A stretch of DNA of 64,000 nt from a virus (lineage: Duplodnaviria; Caudoviricetes): the IMG/VR virus record IMGVR_UViG_3300035501_000922. The stretch is one strand, 5' to 3'. Positions within the stretch are counted from its first letter, which is position 1; the number at the start of each line of letters is the position of its first letter. Below, piece after piece: positions 1-51,923 of this stretch. Both the position numbers and the translations under genes were made by a program. The notes beneath the pieces are model-generated. The model had not been told where the DNA came from, ran no database searches, and saw only the letters and a program-made list of their open reading frames with translations.

Positions 1-2072
1 TTGATAAAGAAAGCGGAAAGGTACTCACTAAAGAAGTTACTATTAAGAAGAAAATTCATCTTGATGTAGCTCTCAGGTATGTACCTGATTCAGTAACGTT
101 TTATGACACATATTGTAATTACACAATTACGATAGACGGTGGCATACATCAAAATGCCGTTGAAAAATGTTTTTGTAATTATATGCAGAATAAAACGAAA
201 GCCACTATGACAGATAATCAGAAAGAAAAGACTCCAATTTTATGGGATGATATTCGAGCTGGTTTATGCTGTGTTATCAATCTTTCTACAAATGCACAAG
301 TAGGATTTGCCGGTAATGCCAAAACAAAAATAATTGGTGAAACTTTAACACCGTATCTTAATGAAATTATCAACACATGCCTTGACAAGTTCTTTACAGA
401 AAACCAAAATTGTCTTAATGAATATATTAAGATTATTAAGTTGAATGCAAAGGCACGTATTGAAGCGACTAAGGTAAAGAATGCTGTGCAGAAAGAAAGA
501 ATGAATTCTTTTAAAGAGCACGAGATGTCAAATTACATTAGATGTAATAATACAGGTAAGAAGTACAAGGAAATCTATCTGGTTGAGGGTAATTCAGCTT
601 CAGGTAGTGCACGTAATGGATGTAATCCAGATACAGATGCATTCTTCTTGTTCAGAGGTGTTGTTGCTAATCCATTCAAATGTAGTCTTTCAGAGATTAT
701 GCAGAATAGAGAATGGAAAGATTTTGTAACAGTTCTGAGATGTGGAATTGGTCCTTCGTTTGATATGAATAAGTTGTATTTCAATCGTATCAATATTCTA
801 ACAGATGAAGATATCGACGGATTCTATATATCAAGTGGTATGTTGGCATTCCTGTATAAATACTATCGTCCTCTTATTGAAGCTGGAAAAGTATATAAAG
901 TATTCTCACCTTTGTATGCATTAGATGATAAAGAACATCCATTCGTTTCCAGTAAATCAGAAATGGTTGGAATCTACCATGATAAAATAGCAAAAAAATA
1001 TAAGATTAAAGTTAACGGTGAAAATAAGTATATGAGTAAGGATGATATTTATGAGTTTTTACTTGATACCTATGATTATCGTGAAAATCTTATTGGAGTT
1101 GCTAAAGACATGGGTAATGTCAATAAGTTATTAGTAGAAGCAATAATTGCATATATGGTTCTTGCAGGTGTTGTAAGGTCGTATAATGACTACGATGATT
1201 TAAAGACAGTATTTTCTAACCAGAAATTCATCAAATACCTTATGTGTAATATCCAAAAGAAATTTAAAGAAATTACTATTGATGAAGGAACCACATTAAA
1301 TGGTGTAGTCAATGGTAAATTTTGTAGTATTAATGTATCAGGTCGTTTTATCAAAAAGACAACTGGTTTAATACCAATATATCAAAAATATGGGTATATG
1401 TTAGAAGTACAAGAGAAAGGAAAAGAACCTGTTAAAATGACAATAGGTGAATTTCTTGATGACTGTACAAAGTATACGCCTAAGATTAAGACTAGATACA
1501 AAGGTTTAATTTCTAGACCTTATAAAACATTCTTAATTGCGGGGAACTTCTCGTTAAGTCTTAACTACTAAACTAAGATAGTAATATACTTAGTGGCGAT
1601 GGGTAATTCCAAAGATATAGTAAAAATGTTAAGAATAGAGACAATCCGCAGCGAAGCTTCTTTATGAGAAGAACGTTCAACGACTATCGAAAGGGTAGCT
1701 TAAGAGAAATACTTAAGTGAGTAACCGAGTAGAGTAGGATTTAAGTAAATCCGAAATGGAATGTGCATTATATTCGGTAACAGAATATTATGTAATGATA
1801 TAGTCTAAACCTTATGGAGACATAAGGCTGTATAAACAGATATAAGTGTAACGAACTTATATAAATATATTGTAGGAGAGCTCAATGGAAATCAGTTGAG
1901 AGAAACAACTCTTGATATTAATAATCGAGTATCTGTTCAGTTTACTGTAGCTGATGTAGAAAAAGAGCTTGACATTATGAATATGATTCATGGTGATTCT
2001 AAGAAAAGTTTGGAACGTCGCAAGGATTTGATGAGGCATTATCAGATTAAACGTGATGACCTTGATAACTAA
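1..2072 (+). CDS. gyrB: Type IIA topoisomerase B subunit (GyrB/ParE-like), 5'-partial, spliced: exon1 <1..1506, exon2 1873..2072
   Basis: Frame open from window start (NYTITIDGGIH). TOPRIM motifs LVEGNSA, FRGVVAN, TDEDIDG. Removing 1507..1872 restores RYKG-L-GELNGNQLRETTLD...DDLDN*. Confidence 0.93.
1507..1872 (+). ncRNA. ORF-less self-splicing group I intron (366 nt) in gyrB
   Basis: P/Q/R/S cores AATTGCGGGGAA, AATCCGCAGC, GTTCAACGACTATC, ATGATATAGTCT. P1 AAGGTT:GACCTT with U.G at the 5' splice site; P10 TTCTA:TAGGA; ends in G; in-frame ligation. Confidence 0.93.
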
Positions 2073-4522: not shown

Positions 4523-4729
4523 TCAGTCTTCTTTTTCAAAGACTGTTTTACCATTAATGGTAATCACAGTCTTTCGATAACGCTTAGACTGAATCTCGCG
4601 CCGTTTTTGCTCGATCTTTTCGAGCTTCTCGTTCTGTGAGTGGTACTGTTCTACCAACTCACCCAAACATCTGATGATGACATCATCAGATGTTTCTGTC
4701 GTTTTTTTGCTTCTAAAAAAGTTTCTCAT
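4523..4729 (-). CDS. Small hypothetical early protein (68 aa)
   Basis: RBS AGGAGG, own early promoter, flanked by hairpins. Confidence 0.75.
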   Translation of the reverse strand: MRNFFRSKKTTETSDDVIIRCLGELVEQYHSQNEKLEKIEQKRREIQSKRYRKTVITINGKTVFEKED

Positions 4730-4822
4730 AATAAATACCTCCTAAGTATTTCAATGCCTTTCTTTTGACTAGGTTCAGGCGACCTTTATTTTTTTATTTT
4801 GTAATCGTTTTATATGTATTAC

Positions 4823-4870
4823 ATATCCGATTACACAAAAATAATATATAAATTAAAAAGTTGACTTTAC
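4823..4870 (-). promoter_or_regulatory. Early-type promoter (core TTATATATTAT 4841..4851), near-identical to 44521..44567
   Basis: GTAAAGTCAACTTTTT..ATTATATATTATTTTTGTGTAATCGGATA-like block at both loci. Confidence 0.75.
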
Positions 4871-4874
4871 AGAT

Positions 4875-4922
4875 ATAATGAAGATGAGAATGACTAATAT
4901 TAGTCATTCTCATCTTCATTAT
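4875..4922. repeat. 48-bp loop-less perfect palindrome
   Basis: ATAATGAAGATGAGAATGACTAAT|ATTAGTCATTCTCATCTTCATTAT between divergent promoters. Confidence 0.9.
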
Positions 4923-4989
4923 TTTCATTTTATTATTATCTTAGCAGTTTTATGTTAGTTATTTCTAGCCCAGAATAATTCATATATAA

Positions 4990-5001
4990 AACAAATATTT
5001 A
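4990..5001 (+). promoter_or_regulatory. Late promoter AACA-N6-TA
   Basis: AACA AATATT TA; same motif precedes most structural genes. Confidence 0.65.
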
Positions 5002-5030
5002 AGTTCAAAGACTCAAAAATCTTTATAGAA

Positions 5031-6800
5031 ATGGAGGAATACATTGTGTCTTTTATAGATAAGGAAAGAATCCTTAATGAATCTCCTAAGAAAAGATTGA
5101 TTATCGGATTTAATAATTTAAAGAATAATTTTAATGAATCTACAGCATTAGAATATTCAAATCTTTATAAAGATAAGTCTTTATCTTTTATTCTGGAGAA
5201 TTCTAGATTGATTTTTTCAGAACCTTTTTATGGTTATGAATTTTATTCTGATGTTGTATGCGGGGATGAAGAATTTTGTGCGTTCCCGAAGTACGAGACT
5301 GAACTTGAGAAGATTAATTCATTTATTGATGAAAATCAGGATAAAATGCCTCCTGAACAACTCAAGATGTATACCGACTTAAGAGATAAACTCGTAGCTA
5401 AAATGCAGGATTGCAAGAATACCACTACTATGAGTAATTATATTGCAGATAGAACTCCTGAAGGTGAAGAATTTGCTAATAGAATTCCTGACGCAGTTTA
5501 TGCTTATAAACAAGGTATTGAATGCAATGATACTGAAAAATGTGAAAATGCAAAAACTGAAATAGATAATCTTTTAAAGGAAAGTACTAACCCGTTAGTA
5601 TTTTTCACATATGCTCCTTATATAAATAAAACAATAGGTGGCGGACGTTCTGTGAGAGCTAATATGGATAGATTCTATAAGGAATCCAGTGAAGAAGATG
5701 CTACTGAAAAAGAGAATTTTGAATCAACGATTAACAATATTCTCATTGTTTCTAAGCTTTCTAATGATAAGGCATATGTTGAGGCAGTTAACTGCATTCC
5801 TACTAAGATTGATAGAACTGTATTTATTGGTCTTGCACAGGAATCGGTTAAAGACCAGATTGATGAGCTTATCACAGAGAGAGTTTCTGATTATGAATCT
5901 TCGTATTCTACACCAGAAGCTGCTGTAAATAATATCTTCAATGATGATTTTGACAGAATTCTGTTTAAAGAAGAATATGATGAGTTCCGTAATAAGAATT
6001 ATGGAATTCGTTTAAACATATTTGAATCAATGCTTGATATGATTACGTATGAATATCAGACATGCGAAGATACCAGTCTTCCTATTGATGGCTTTAATTA
6101 TTTCGATGAAGGAACAACTATCGAAGATGCATTTAGAATTATCAATGATAAATGTAATGAAACACGTGATGTTCTTGGAATGTATAAAGAGTCAGACGAA
6201 GAGGATGTTACTGATGACGACATTGATTCTATGGATAGAGACATAAACGGTGACTCGTCAAAAAAACCTGAAGCCCCCAAGCCTAAGAATGCTGCTAACC
6301 GTATTCAGTTTAAAGCAATGGATGCTGAAGTACAGCAGAATAAAGCACGTGCTACTGCAAAGCAGAAGGGGCAAGAGGTTACAAATGCAGTAAAAGCAGT
6401 AGCTCAATTACCGATGAATGTTATTAATGACATCAAAGACCAAACACATAAACTTGATGAAGCTGATGACGAAAGACGTAAGAAATATATGTCCGAGCCG
6501 GGTTTTAGAAAGAAGGCTTTCAGAAATCTGAAATTAGCAATAGTGTATGGCAGTGCGGCTAAAGCAAAAATAGCATTCGTACCTGTAGTAACTTTATGTC
6601 GTCATTTCAGTAAAGTTAAAGACAGACGTATTCGTAACGAGTTATCCAAAGAACTAGATACAGAAATCAAAATTTGCGAAGAAAAAATTAATGATGCAAA
6701 TGCGTCTGGTGATAATAACGCAAAATATCAATTAATGAGAATTAAATCAAAACTCGAATCTGAGAAGGTACGTGTAAGATTAAATAGTAAATATGTATAA
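5031..6800 (+). CDS. Probable virion head/core protein (start may be GTG 5046)
   Basis: Acidic N-part with many hydrophobic-x-E|S motifs (ILNES, FNES, FYKES, MYKES), basic helical C-part, head gene cluster. Confidence 0.55.
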   Translation: MEEYIVSFIDKERILNESPKKRLIIGFNNLKNNFNESTALEYSNLYKDKSLSFILENSRLIFSEPFYGYEFYSDVVCGDEEFCAFPKYETELEKINSFIDENQDKMPPEQLKMYTDLRDKLVAKMQDCKNTTTMSNYIADRTPEGEEFANRIPDAVYAYKQGIECNDTEKCENAKTEIDNLLKESTNPLVFFTYAPYINKTIGGGRSVRANMDRFYKESSEEDATEKENFESTINNILIVSKLSNDKAYVEAVNCIPTKIDRTVFIGLAQESVKDQIDELITERVSDYESSYSTPEAAVNNIFNDDFDRILFKEEYDEFRNKNYGIRLNIFESMLDMITYEYQTCEDTSLPIDGFNYFDEGTTIEDAFRIINDKCNETRDVLGMYKESDEEDVTDDDIDSMDRDINGDSSKKPEAPKPKNAANRIQFKAMDAEVQQNKARATAKQKGQEVTNAVKAVAQLPMNVINDIKDQTHKLDEADDERRKKYMSEPGFRKKAFRNLKLAIVYGSAAKAKIAFVPVVTLCRHFSKVKDRRIRNELSKELDTEIKICEEKINDANASGDNNAKYQLMRIKSKLESEKVRVRLNSKYV

Positions 6801-38224: not shown

Positions 38225-40264
38225 ATGGAACAACTAGAGAGGATACCTAAGAAAAAATTATTATCTGTAAAAGATATAAAAATGAAACCATTGAAAATTA
38301 AGTTTGATATAACCACATTGAATATGATTATATCATTTATTTATAAAGATAGTGTACTAAGAACAAGAAAAACACTATCTAATATTTATAAGCTTTTTAA
38401 TAATCTTGATGAAAGCATTTATGAAGACGACCCAACGTTGTTTGGAAGAGTCTGGATCATACAAAAAACACTATATGGAAAGCTAATTGATGGATTTGAG
38501 AATGATGATAACTTAAAACAATATTGTCTTGATGATATAGAGTGTGATGAATTCAGAGCAACAACGTTAAAAAATATCTTAGAAACAAAGAAAATCTCAC
38601 ATGATGAATCTAAGTATCTCATTAAAAAAATTGATGATACATTAGAATTTGGATATACTGTTACAGTTAAAGATATAATGAAACAGATTCTAAATTCTAT
38701 AGATGATGGGGATTTTAAATCATATAAAGCAGTAAGTGAAGATTTGTATAATATTGCGACTTCTGTTATTAATATCAAACGTAATACATCAAGTTTGGGT
38801 TCAGATCAAACATTCTCACTTAGTGATGAACAGTTTGATGCTGTTATTGAAGATGCAGTACAGAAGTTAAAAGATAGAAATAGAATATTCATCACAGGTA
38901 TACAAAGATGGAATACGATATTAGCACCGGGATATTTAAGCAAAAGATTATATACATATCTTGCATTTCCCGGAAAAGGTAAATCAACTATTTTACTTAA
39001 ATCTGCAATGGATATTCGTAAATATAATAAAGGGATTAAAACAAAAGATCCTGATAAAAGACCTGCTGTATTATTCTTAACCCTTGAAAATGATATCCCT
39101 GAAACTATTGAGCGTATTTATAATATGTGTGTCGATAGCGATGATATTCGTAATTATTCGCCTAAACAAATAAAGAAAAAGATGAGAGAAAAAGGTGGAT
39201 TAAAACTAAGTGATGATGATAACATCGACATTATCATTCAAGAATATAAAAACAGGGAATTAGATACAAATGATTTGTATACAATAATTAATGATTTAGC
39301 AGATGAAGGAATTGAAGTTATTACTTTAATTGTAGACTACATGAAAAGAATTAGACCAGCTGAAAGAGCTGATAGTGAAAAGACTGAGCTGAAGAATATT
39401 ACCAATGAATTAAAAGAAATAGCAAAGTATTTCGATATTTGTGTTATTTCAGCTCAACAGCTTAATCGTGTTGGTGCTAGTGTAGTAGATGCGGCTTTAC
39501 AGGCTAAAAAAGAAGATGTTACACGATTAGTTGGTAGAGATGCCATAAGTGGAGCATGGGAGATTAAAGTTTATCAATGGTCTCCCCATATAGTAATATA
39601 TGAAAAAAAAACTGTTTTAATTGCTGGAAACTCTTGTTAGGTCTTAGATACCAAAGTGTGATAATTCTAAGAATAGAGACAATCAGCAGCCAAGACTCTT
39701 TATAAGAGTAAGGTTCAACGACTATCGAAAGCATAACTTAAGAGAAATACTTAAGTGAAGAAGTGAGTAGAGTACATTATTTATATAGTGGAAACAAACA
39801 GCTCTTTATATTTGGTAATAGAATATAAAGATGAAGATATAGTCTAAACTTTGCTGAGAAGTAAAGATATACATAATAAATATAATTTATGCATTGAGAA
39901 CAGCGATTTTGTATGTATTATTAACCCTGAGGTTAAGTCTGATACAAATGAATTATTTTTAACTTTTAAAATGCTTAAAAGAAGATACAGGTCTTCGGAA
40001 GAAAATGAGAAACTTAGAAGACTTGAATATTTCAATCATCCGTTTGAACCTAATAATGAAATTAGATTATTAGATGACATAGATTTACCTAGACCTTTAT
40101 CATTGGAATCTCTTAGTACACAATTTGAAGCAATAGATGATAAGCGAGGAAAAGAGAATGCAATCAATAGAGAAGTTAAGGATAAGAAGAAAAAGAAAAC
40201 TTATGTAGAAAATGATTATGATGATTTTGAGCCTTTTGATTTTGAAAAGACATCTAATTATTAA
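38225..40264 (+). CDS. dnaB: DnaB-like replicative helicase, spliced: exon1 38225..39564, exon2 39892..40264 (570 aa)
   Basis: Walker A AFPGKGKS, TLEN, VDYM, SAQQLNR; splicing restores GAWEIIENSDFV. Confidence 0.9.
39565..39891 (+). ncRNA. ORF-less group I intron (327 nt) in the helicase gene
   Basis: P1 GGGAGAT:GTCTCCC (U.G), P10 TCAATG:CATTGA, cores AATTGCTGGAA/AATCAGCAGC/GTTCAACGACTATC/AAGATATAGTCT, terminal G. Confidence 0.93.
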
Positions 40265-48705: not shown

Positions 48706-51700
48706 TTATAATAACATGTCATCGACATTAATTTGTTGTGTATGTACAGTAGCATCATGGAATTTTTTCATTCCAAGACGTTTAGTAGTTTCTGCAGGTT
48801 TGGAACATAATAATCCAATATTCCTCTTACCAAGTTTGTAATAGAAATCACCTGCACATTTATTGCAAAGATGTTTTTCTTTTCCAACTCCTATACAATA
48901 CATAGGACTTCTTAGTTTTACAACCTTACCAGCATATTTAGTTATTACATCGGGAGTTAAACAAATAAGTTTACCCTTTTCTATAATATATCTATATAAG
49001 AAATCGTCATATCCTTTATTAGGAATTGTTATAGATAGATATCCAGTTGTGCCACAATCAGAACCTTCATCAGCTAATGTTTCAGATTGCATTGCTGAAA
49101 TAAGTTCTTTAGATAAGTAACCGGATACTTGTGTACCGTAATATTATTCATATAGGTTAGTTACTCCTATATCTGTTTATACAGCTATATGTCTCCATAT
49201 AGATTGGACTATATCTTACTTATATATTCTATTACCAAATATATAAGCCCATGCACTTCCACTCTACTTAGAGTGTACTCTACTCACTTACTCACTTAGA
49301 TATTTCTTCTAAGCTATGTTTTCGATAGTCTCTGAACGTTCTTCCATAAAGAAGCTTCGCTGCGGATTGTCTCTATTCTTAACATTATTACTATACCTTG
49401 GACGTTACTCCTTGCCACTATTATATTACTATCTTAGTTTAGTAGTTAAGACTTTTTAAATTAAAGTTATAGTTATTAACTTTAATTTATGAGATATTCC
49501 CGCAATTCACATGGTCAGACAGCCGGGTTACACGTGACTGCCTTCGGATAGGCACCGGATAAGATGGCATTTGAATGTGGAGCTATATCTTTTTTCTCAA
49601 GACCATCAAGTAATGATGCCGTCAGAACATCAAACTCACCGGTCATATTATTTTTAATAGCACCTCTCATTAAGTACATATTCTTATAGTTATTACCAAT
49701 AGAACCACGAGCACCTGAAACGTATAAGTCCATACCTATATCGTCTTTAAGAACTTCTTTTGTTTTTGCAACAAGTTCTTTCTCCATTTGTTCTGATGCT
49801 TTAGGGTCATTATTGGCTAACTCATCTTTATATTTTACTAAAAGTTCTTTCTTAAGTTTTTTTACTTCAGGAGGAACTTTTAAAACTTTTGCAGTAAATG
49901 ATGTTGTTATAACTGAGTGAAGCTGTAATCCTAACCAGTCTCTCATATCAACATACTTATACATTTGCTCAACAGTCATTTTATCTTCATATAATGCTTT
50001 TGCTACAGTTTTTTCTACTTTACCAAATCCACCATCATCTAATACATAATTTACATATCCGATAATCTCCTGTAAGCCAATTTCTTCAACCATTAATCTA
50101 TTAAAAATAAATCGACCAAGAGTTGTTTTAGTTGGCTCTTTAACTAGAGGATATTCGGATGGTGTTAAAGTGAGTATATCAGTGGGATGGTGCTTAGCAG
50201 TTACCGCTTTAGTTGGTTTATTCTTTTCATCTTTTGACATATCTACAAGATTACCAAACCAATCAACTAACATTGAGAAAGTTATTTCTTCAGGTTTTAA
50301 AGATAAGAAATACTGTTTATCTTGAGAAGATAAAACTTTAGCATTAGGTTTAGGTTCTTTTGTAAGAGTATAAAAAGTCTGAATTACTTCGTTTTCTACC
50401 TTACGAATATTCTTACCTGATGCATTTATAAAATATGATTTTGAATTCATTGCTTTACGACATTCTTCATTTGCTTCCTGTGTAAATACAATTTTTACTG
50501 TTGTCTGATCTCCATCATAGTCACCGTCTAATCCTGGAAGATATGAGTTACTAAATTGAACTGAATCAATAAACTTAGTAGCCATCTTTGTGGGTGGAAC
50601 GGAAAAATCAATATGAGGATAGTTTTCATATACTTTACCGTTAAATGATACAACTTCAGTTTCTGTTGTTGAAGTAACCCTAATTTCAGCTAAGAAGATT
50701 CCAAATTCATCAAGCAGAGGATAACGAGTTACTAAACAGAATTTATCTTTGGTTACATCAACAGCAGCCATATATAAAAGGTCTGTCCATGTCATATATC
50801 TAGAAGCAATTGAAGAAATTTCAGAACGATTAGTTGGGTCTATACGTTTACCTGTAAAACCTAAATAGAACTTCCTATCAGAACCAACTACAGGAATTTC
50901 AATTTTATTGAAACGTGATTCTGGGTCTTTTACGTATGTATCAATCATTTTCTTAAAATACTTTTCAGTAAAATAAGATTCAGGGTCTGCTAGTCGTAAA
51001 TTATCTTTAGCAGTATCAGATACTGGATTATAAAGAATTTTAGATAGCTGAGAATCTATAACTTCTCTTTCAAAGAAAGTTCTAACCCAATGCATAATGA
51101 ATGGATAACATAAACTACAAATTTGAGAAATAGGTAAAGCTGCATGACGAAAATCTGTTACCATTTGGTCAGGTCTATCAGCATGGAAAGTCGGTGCTGT
51201 AATGACCGTTCTTGTACAATAGTCTACGTTTCGTCCTAAGAGATACTTACGAAGTAATCCCTGCTTTTTCTCAAGCTTTGTTTTAAAATAATCGTATATT
51301 TCAACCAGAGTATTCTGAATATTATAATTAGTGGCACTAAACTGAAAATCAAACATATCTCTATCTTTTATTAATCCAGCATTGCGAATTAATCTACTAT
51401 ACAATTGGTTTATACTTCCGGTTTCACCACTACCACTCTTAGAATAAGTTACATCACGATAAAACGCTGGAATAACTAAGCAGTAATGAATAAAAATTTC
51501 ATTCTTCTTAGTTTTTGTAATAAGGTCAATACGCTCATTACGCATTCCTGTTTCGTCAGCATATTCCCACTTAATCTTTTCCCAGTTATTATAGATAAAT
51601 TCTAGTCCAGTCTCACCGTTTTCATCAGGAACTAACTTTCCAGTTTTATCAATAGAGTAATACTCTTCACCATTGACAATCTTCTCGATGTTACGATAAA

Positions 51701-51923
51701 GACGTTTAAGAACTTTATATATATGAGGATGAATAAAATACGAATGAAGATCAATATATGCAAAAGTTTCTTTTCTTGATTTAGTAGTTATTCCAAATAT
51801 TTCATTTGATATTAAGCCATTTGGATGGGGTATTCCACCTCTTTGAAATAGAATACCTGAAGTGACTTCTTGAAGATGGTTTAATTCAATAAACTCTTTA
51901 ATATCAAATAAATCTATTTTCAT
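48706..51923 (-). CDS. rpoC: RNA polymerase beta' subunit (probably virion RNAP), spliced: exon1 51923..49537, exon2 49138..48706 (939 aa)
   Basis: GLISNEIFG, KQGLLRKYLLGRNVDYCTRTVI, RYP, catalytic DGDYDGD, SGARG; exon2 GTQVSGYL, DCGT, LRSPMYC..C..C, MKKFH; late promoter 51946..51957. Confidence 0.9.
49139..49536 (-). ncRNA. ORF-less group I intron (398 nt) in the RNAP beta' bridge helix, apparent terminal A
   Basis: Cores AATTGCGGGAA/AATCCGCAGC/GTTCAGAGACTATC/AAGATATAGTCC; P1 AGGCAGT:GCTGTCT; long blocks identical to the gyrB intron. Confidence 0.9.

Follow-up and report, generated by a model that had tools for sequence, protein, structure and literature searches.

To our knowledge, the last nucleotide of a group I intron is almost always G, and this terminal omega-G is a near-universal rather than a strictly defining feature of the class. 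When the omega-G of the Tetrahymena intron is changed to A and the G-C guanosine-binding pocket is left intact, ligation is reportedly slowed severely, and in engineered G414A and G264A:C311U ribozymes, ligation at a terminal A is said to need an A-U pair in the pocket. [quoted passage not shown] By the title of Raghavan et al. 2007 (J Bacteriol 189:6572; cited in PMC11270868), this self-splicing intron is without the canonical omega-G. In hexacoral mitochondria, the ND5-717 group I intron ends in A, and its exons are perfectly ligated in vivo at low efficiency, with most precursors left unspliced (Chi et al. 2019, PMC6545197).

Here we describe a 398-nt intron on the minus strand of a sequence from an AR9-like jumbo phage (IMGVR_UViG_3300035501_000922; the whole stretch of 64,000 nucleotides is referred to as the window) for which an earlier note had proposed a terminal A. 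Like the engineered Tetrahymena ribozymes it carries A in place of the terminal G, but their pocket pair was changed to A-U whereas the window intron keeps G-C. It shares with Cbu.L1917 the reported lack of an omega-G and differs from it in interrupting a protein gene rather than a bacterial rRNA gene. The likeness to ND5-717 extends to a natural A end, a conserved catalytic core and an essential protein gene as host, but ND5-717 is a giant organellar intron with strictly vertical inheritance and with genes in its P8; its A is fixed throughout an animal order (PMC6545197), while that of the window intron occurs in a single phage strain whose relatives have G ends. Group I introns are also present in RNA polymerase genes of other jumbo phages, for example Staphylococcus phage Machias (CPT_Machias_171), where they interrupt the bridge-helix region of this gene as well. 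Unlike the window intron, these are two small introns (L004, 3150-3500) that lie 3 and 19 nt further downstream, flank a 16-nt micro-exon, ACTCAAGAAGGTGGGT, and both end in G. The window intron is rare rather than unprecedented, as non-G intron ends have already been published, and no new type of element is represented by it; the starting point of the earlier note, the near-universal G end of group I introns, is correct with the addition that natural exceptions are on record.

The minus strand of positions 49139-49536 matches the Rfam group I intron family RF00028 at 63.5 bits (E 8.9e-14, against a gathering score of 50). The bounds of the intron (49139..49536, minus strand; 32% G+C) are supported by this match, the motif coordinates and alignment with its siblings and same-site relatives, and no ORF was found within its 398 nt, the longest stretch free of stops being 48 aa. 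The P, Q, R and S blocks were located as AAUUGCGGG, AAUCCGCAGC, UUCAGAGACUA and GAUAUAGUCC, respectively, and can be aligned with those of 14-16 related introns. The conserved P3-P9 core helices are present, and P7 (GACUA:UAGUC) retains the canonical G-C guanosine-binding pair, as the earlier note had read it; in place of the terminal omega-G the intron has A49139. The element is a genuine group I intron. Two further hairpins, read directly from the sequence rather than with a subgroup-specific model, are candidates for P7.1 (49313-49295) and P7.2 (49275-49260), extra helices between P7 and P3' that mark the phage-type subgroup IA.

Direct reading of the P1 hairpin (49518..49542, minus strand) pairs the 5' exon sequence GGCAGU (49542-49537) with the guide GCUGUC (49523-49518) and contains the wobble U49537.G49523, so that the 5' splice site falls directly after U49537, at GCAGT/ (solidi mark splice sites throughout). 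The guide strand of P10 occupies the P1 loop as GUGUA (49533-49529) and CCG (49526-49524), directly 5' of the wobble G49523, and its exon side is CGGUACAC (49131..49138, minus strand). P10 comprises 3+5 bp, with CCG+GUGUA opposite CGG+UACAC of the 3' exon (49138-49131) and a 2-nt guide-side bulge formed by A49528 and C49527; RNAduplex assigned it -6.5 kcal/mol, but drew the pairing slightly differently, with a 1-nt bulge. As P10 pairs with exon CGG+UACAC, the 3' splice site is placed between A49139 and C49138. P9.0 agrees with this placement, its 5' strand AAU (49205-49203) pairing with AUU (49142-49140) and leaving A49139 at the omega position; this segment (49139..49142, minus strand) was aligned with same-site introns that read ...AUUG/. 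These readings bear out the structural claims of the earlier note, which had fixed the 5' site by P1, put the 3' site at A/C by P10 and P9.0, and pointed to a gyrB sibling reading ...TATATTG/ at the aligned position.

The intron interrupts the beta' gene of an AR9-type jumbo-phage virion RNA polymerase. Exon 1 (49537..51923, minus strand; 795 codons and 2 nt in the ORF list) contains the catalytic motif DGDYDGD, and unspliced, its ORF reads seven intron codons before a stop at 49515. Exon 2 (48706..49138, minus strand), supported by tblastn and alignments, supplies the remainder of the bridge helix together with the C-terminal portion of beta', its first base C completing a Val codon (GT/C) that is followed by GGT ACA CAA and an open frame to the stop; the intron lies between the second and third bases of this bridge-helix Val codon. 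Exon 2 is 39-42% identical to the C-terminal virion RNAP beta' subunits of AR9/PBS1, phiR1-37 and Staphylococcus jumbo phages (tblastn, E 3e-32), and its alignment with AR9 g264 (41.7% identity, E 3e-32) covers the bridge helix. A Pfam match of exon 1 to Rpb1 domain 2 was weak, at 17.6 bits and under the cut-off. The interrupted gene as a whole specifies a 940-codon beta'-like subunit with 72-76% aa identity to intronless relatives (L008-L010, L012 and L019) over all 939 residues, and comparison with relatives over the 940 aa revealed intact exons and no other damage. Beta' is a single 940-codon unit in the window (48706-51923, minus strand), L008 and L012, while alignment of AR9 g264 (401 aa) and its counterparts is limited to residues ~531-940 of the window beta', so that AR9, phiR1-37 and the Staphylococcus phages divide the subunit differently.

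The beta' protein places strict demands on where the exons may join. At the junction, the intronless relatives L008-L010, L012 and L019 read GCA AAG GGT ACA GCA GTA TCT GGT TAT (AYPKAKGTAVSGYL), and since they carry GCA AAG GGT ACA (AKGT), the GGT codon is exon; the earlier note had named absence of this Gly from intronless homologues as a sign against its reading, and the Gly is present. In the more distant AR9 g264, phiR1-37 g231, S6, LPJP1, BpSp and Ea35-70, the number of residues from the conserved A to GGY/SGY is equal. The window reads GCA GT-intron-C GGT ACA CAA GTA TCC GGT TAC, and its spliced product, AYPKAVGTQVSGYL, would have the spacing of every intronless homologue, in agreement with what the earlier note had claimed for the product. 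GCAGT/...ATTA/CGGTACA is the only junction that restores this spacing, and ligation at A would give the junction sequence GCAGTCGGTACA. Excision of 49535..49138 yields the same mRNA as excision of 49536..49139, as positions 49536 and 49138 both hold C.

All 5' sites after U were combined with all 3' sites after G in an enumeration of possible splice sites. A TAA in the exon-2 frame (49144..49146, minus strand; direct reading), 6 nt upstream of the 3' splice site, excludes acceptors further upstream, including G49149, and the nearest downstream Gs lie at 49136..49137 (minus strand). Used with U49537, G49137 gives a frameshift, and G49136, the nearest in-frame G, deletes the Gly codon, as the earlier note had recognized, leaving AV-TQVSGYL, one residue short. 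The combination of U49532 with G49137 adds one residue and would destroy P3. The length is preserved by joining C49534 to G49136 or A49535 to G49137, but these pairs have no U.G wobble. The pair C49536/...C49138/ leads to the same mRNA as the A reading, yet breaks both splice-site rules. As every other length-keeping combination either places the 5' site behind a C or an A or loses P3, no canonical U/...G/ pair would restore the conserved bridge-helix spacing.

Of these junctions, U49537 with G49136 deserves separate consideration, as it would keep both canonical rules, a U at the 5' site and a G at the 3' end. The mRNA would then read GCAGT/TACACAA (junction GCAGTTACACAA), and a Gly-less beta' would have to remain functional. 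The deleted residue is not invariant, being G, D or A among homologues, and G49136, 3 nt downstream of A49139, would keep five of the eight P10 pairs (UACAC:GUGUA, -5.7 versus -6.5 kcal/mol). Against this, the spacing is kept by every homologue, from 76% down to ~33% identity, and also by E. coli beta' according to the alignment of the earlier note, and GGT is conserved as exon DNA in the intronless relatives. G49136 would moreover have to leave the CGG:CCG pairing, with P10 then 5 nt from P1, unlike in all relatives, and with P9.0 lost. We consider use of G49136 to be quite unlikely.

A49139 is also found in two further assemblies, JGI 3300043080 (L023), which covers the entire intron, and Logan SRR11793810 (L024), both of which read ...AATAATATTACGGTACAC. 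These contigs are 100% identical to the window and possibly derive from related samples. As the same A occurs in both, an assembly slip is excluded, while identical copies do not imply long persistence of the A allele. That the A reflects a sequencing or assembly error of any kind is extremely improbable, as the window, L023 and L024 come from different pipelines and position 49139 lies outside any homopolymer run. The A was seen in one strain only, the nearest relative (85% aa identity) having G, and a search of IMG/VR with the exact pattern of the 3' junction returned chance matches only.

With exon 2 as sole query, 89 short homologues were found, so the beta' gene is interrupted at this point in many relatives. 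The DNA of eight of these short homologues and of L011 (IMGVR_UViG_3300031867_000010) was compared with the window at the insertion site; L029, L030, L031, L035, L037 and L038 are ENA/Logan assemblies, and the phages are uncultured jumbo phages. The introns end in ...TTATTTG/CGGTACA in the closest relative, L035 (85% aa identity), in ...AAATATTG/CGGTACA in L031/L032, in ...GAGTTTG/CGGCAC in L030, in ...TTAATTG/TGGAAC in L029/L036, in ...GAATAG/TGGAAC in L037, in ...CAAAATG/TGGTACA in L038 and in ...AAAAATTG/AGGAACA in L011, against ...AATATTA/CGGTACA in the window. Thus G occupies the homologous last nucleotide, directly before N-GGN-ACN, in 7/7 distinct same-site relatives, and no A end was found among these seven diverged introns. 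Both ends are visible in L029, L031 and L011, and in each, as in the window, the base immediately 5' of the wobble G is the partner of the first 3'-exon nucleotide; the P1 layout with its U.G wobble is common to all four, and the bipartite P10 with a 2-nt bulge recurs in L011. The seven G-ended introns at the same site, with the same P1/P10 layout, show that the terminal A of the window intron is derived and arose from G at the genuine omega nucleotide. The comparison with orthologous introns that the earlier note had called for therefore strengthens its central claim that this intron ends in A.

The same-site introns resemble the window intron in their insertion point (GT/N GGN ACN), P1/P10 layout and core blocks, and differ from it in their G end and in P7, which reads UCAACGACUA with AUAGUCU where the window intron has UCAGAGACUA with AUAGUCC. 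The intron of L029 is ORF-less like that of the window and nearly identical to it in P3, J7/9, P9 and P9.1, whereas those of L011 and L031 contain an ORF. These ORFs (L031 550-1362, 270 aa; L011 ~4710-5525, ~270 aa) probably encode homing endonucleases, and the ORF-less state of the window and L029 introns fits loss of an endonuclease after fixation. One further same-site intron, in L020, was detected in a metagenome scan; its contig stops ~115 nt into the intron and contains the 5' part only.

The omega-A reading of the earlier note is supported by these comparisons. The note did not mention that P7 differs from that of all 16 family relatives at three positions beside the guanosine-binding pair. 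In the segment comprising J6/7 and the 5' strand of P7 (UCAGAGACUA; 49326..49335, minus strand), the G of GACUA is the G of the guanosine-binding site, and the G and A that precede GACUA are unique to the window intron, the rest of the family having A and C. In the 3' strand of P7 (AUAUAGUCC; 49206..49214, minus strand), the last C (49206) is unique in the family, where the others have U, and its partner is the G that only the window intron has in the 5' strand. All 16 related introns (both siblings, the same-site relatives, further introns from these loci and the Machias pair) have UCAACGACUA and AUAGUCU as their R and S blocks, and the window intron alone has UCAGAGACUA and AUAGUCC; the pair beside the guanosine-binding pair is G-C rather than A-U, and the bulged base A rather than C. 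In an alignment of the 3' halves of 15 introns, the window intron deviates at exactly 3 of the 40 columns without variation among the other 14, all three in P7, and in the 5' halves at 1 of the 23 columns invariant in 12 others, compared with 0-2 deviations at such columns for the other aligned introns. The 5'-half deviation is G49516 (minus strand), in the P1-P3 junction (UGA), where all 12 related introns have A. The replacement of A-U by G-C is a compensatory change, which shows that P7 pairing was maintained in the lineage of the window.

Given a terminal A, the P7 changes could be taken for a nucleotide pocket that is specific for A. The same P7 5' strand is, however, present in at least 108 IMG/VR stretches among the matches listed (L039-L146), with a 3' strand of ...GUCC in 54/54 locatable cases, and the five tails of such introns that were inspected visually resemble ...AUUG/ or ...AAUG/. 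Because the variant is common among introns with G-looking tails, an A-specific pocket was rejected as a specific adaptation and is regarded as a remote possibility. The P7 of the window intron appears instead to be an ordinary alternative state, seemingly compatible with a terminal G. Across viral contigs the form UUCAGAGACUAUCGAA with ...UAGUCC is very common, while UCAACGACUA with UAGUCU is invariant in the intron family of the phage clade to which the window belongs.

The window contains two sibling group I introns, which match the Rfam group I model on the plus strand at 1497-1827 (64.8 bits) and 39563-39866 (74.2 bits), and both have canonical G ends. The first (1507..1872, plus strand) interrupts a gyrB-like gene and ends in ...TATATTG/TAGGAG, and the second (39565..39891, plus strand), in a DnaB-like helicase gene, ends in ...TTTATG/CATTGAG. 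The junction of the helicase intron, GAGAT/...TATG/CATTGAG, was set by comparison with the intronless L026 and L027, which ruled out a non-G end for this sibling. Its P1 contains two adjacent U.G wobbles, of which only the first (GAGAT/), used with G39891, gives WEIIENSD as in L026 and L027, and its P10 is a directly adjacent 6-bp helix, CAUUGA:UCAAUG.

The bridge-helix codons of beta' are a hot spot for introns. In addition to those of Machias, an intron is located two codons upstream in L033 (~1440-1630), and two intron cores lie within ~400 nt just upstream of exon 2 in L037 and L038 (1150-1600). Beside the DxDGD motif, at beta' residues ~466-483, L011 (3264-3573) and L020 (1160-1919) have an extra insertion of ~300-760 nt, which in L020 contains group I R and S core blocks; the window gene is without an intron at these residues.

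We propose, with a probability of about 60%, that the window intron ligates its exons at A. The element would be a mobile-type group I ribozyme from which any endonuclease gene has been lost, and in the lineage of the window its last nucleotide has changed from the ancestral G to A. A working beta' demands a cut after U49537 and rejoining before C49138. The first step, attack by an external guanosine held in the intact G-C pocket of P7, is expected to be normal, while in the second the 8-bp P10 and 3-bp P9.0 would dock the 3' splice site despite the poor fit of A in the pocket. Ligation would thus occur, but probably at a lower rate than in relatives with a G end; a protein may assist it, and a fraction of transcripts may be mis-spliced at G49136. 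As the polymerase is packaged in the virion and would be needed in few copies, a low splicing yield could suffice.

A less favourable interpretation is that the A is a recent damaging mutation, that the second step is essentially dead, and that a defective or complemented variant happened to be sampled. The A is found only in 100% identical copies and in 0/7 diverged relatives, the G-C pocket is unchanged, and the endonuclease gene has already been lost, after which introns of this kind can decay. We nevertheless regard this interpretation as unlikely: the A is the consensus in three assemblies, the exon-2 ORF is carried on contigs of up to 256 kb, the core helices are all intact and the gene is otherwise undamaged. 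In AR9-type phages the virion RNAP beta' is, in addition, expected to be essential. It is more doubtful still that the terminal A was selected, such that together with the P7 changes and G49516 it would make the second step slow, or dependent on conditions or on a protein, with splicing timing or limiting the polymerase subunit. The slow or assisted ligation and the gating of RNAP subunit production by splicing, which the earlier note had raised, are speculation; if the A were selected, the intron would represent a natural group I ribozyme whose tuning acts via the omega nucleotide.

With ligation at A as the preferred reading, the value of the case lies in its clean G-ended same-site relatives and its strict protein constraint. 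One A strain set against seven G-ended introns at the same site constitutes a near-controlled natural experiment on the choice of 3' splice site by group I introns: they do not differ in their guide pairings, and beta' leaves no room for a shifted junction, its bridge-helix spacing being constant from phages to bacteria. Annotation pipelines that demand a terminal G would mis-join this essential beta' gene. The comparison of A with G bears on the extent to which P10 and P9.0 can stand in for omega-G recognition.
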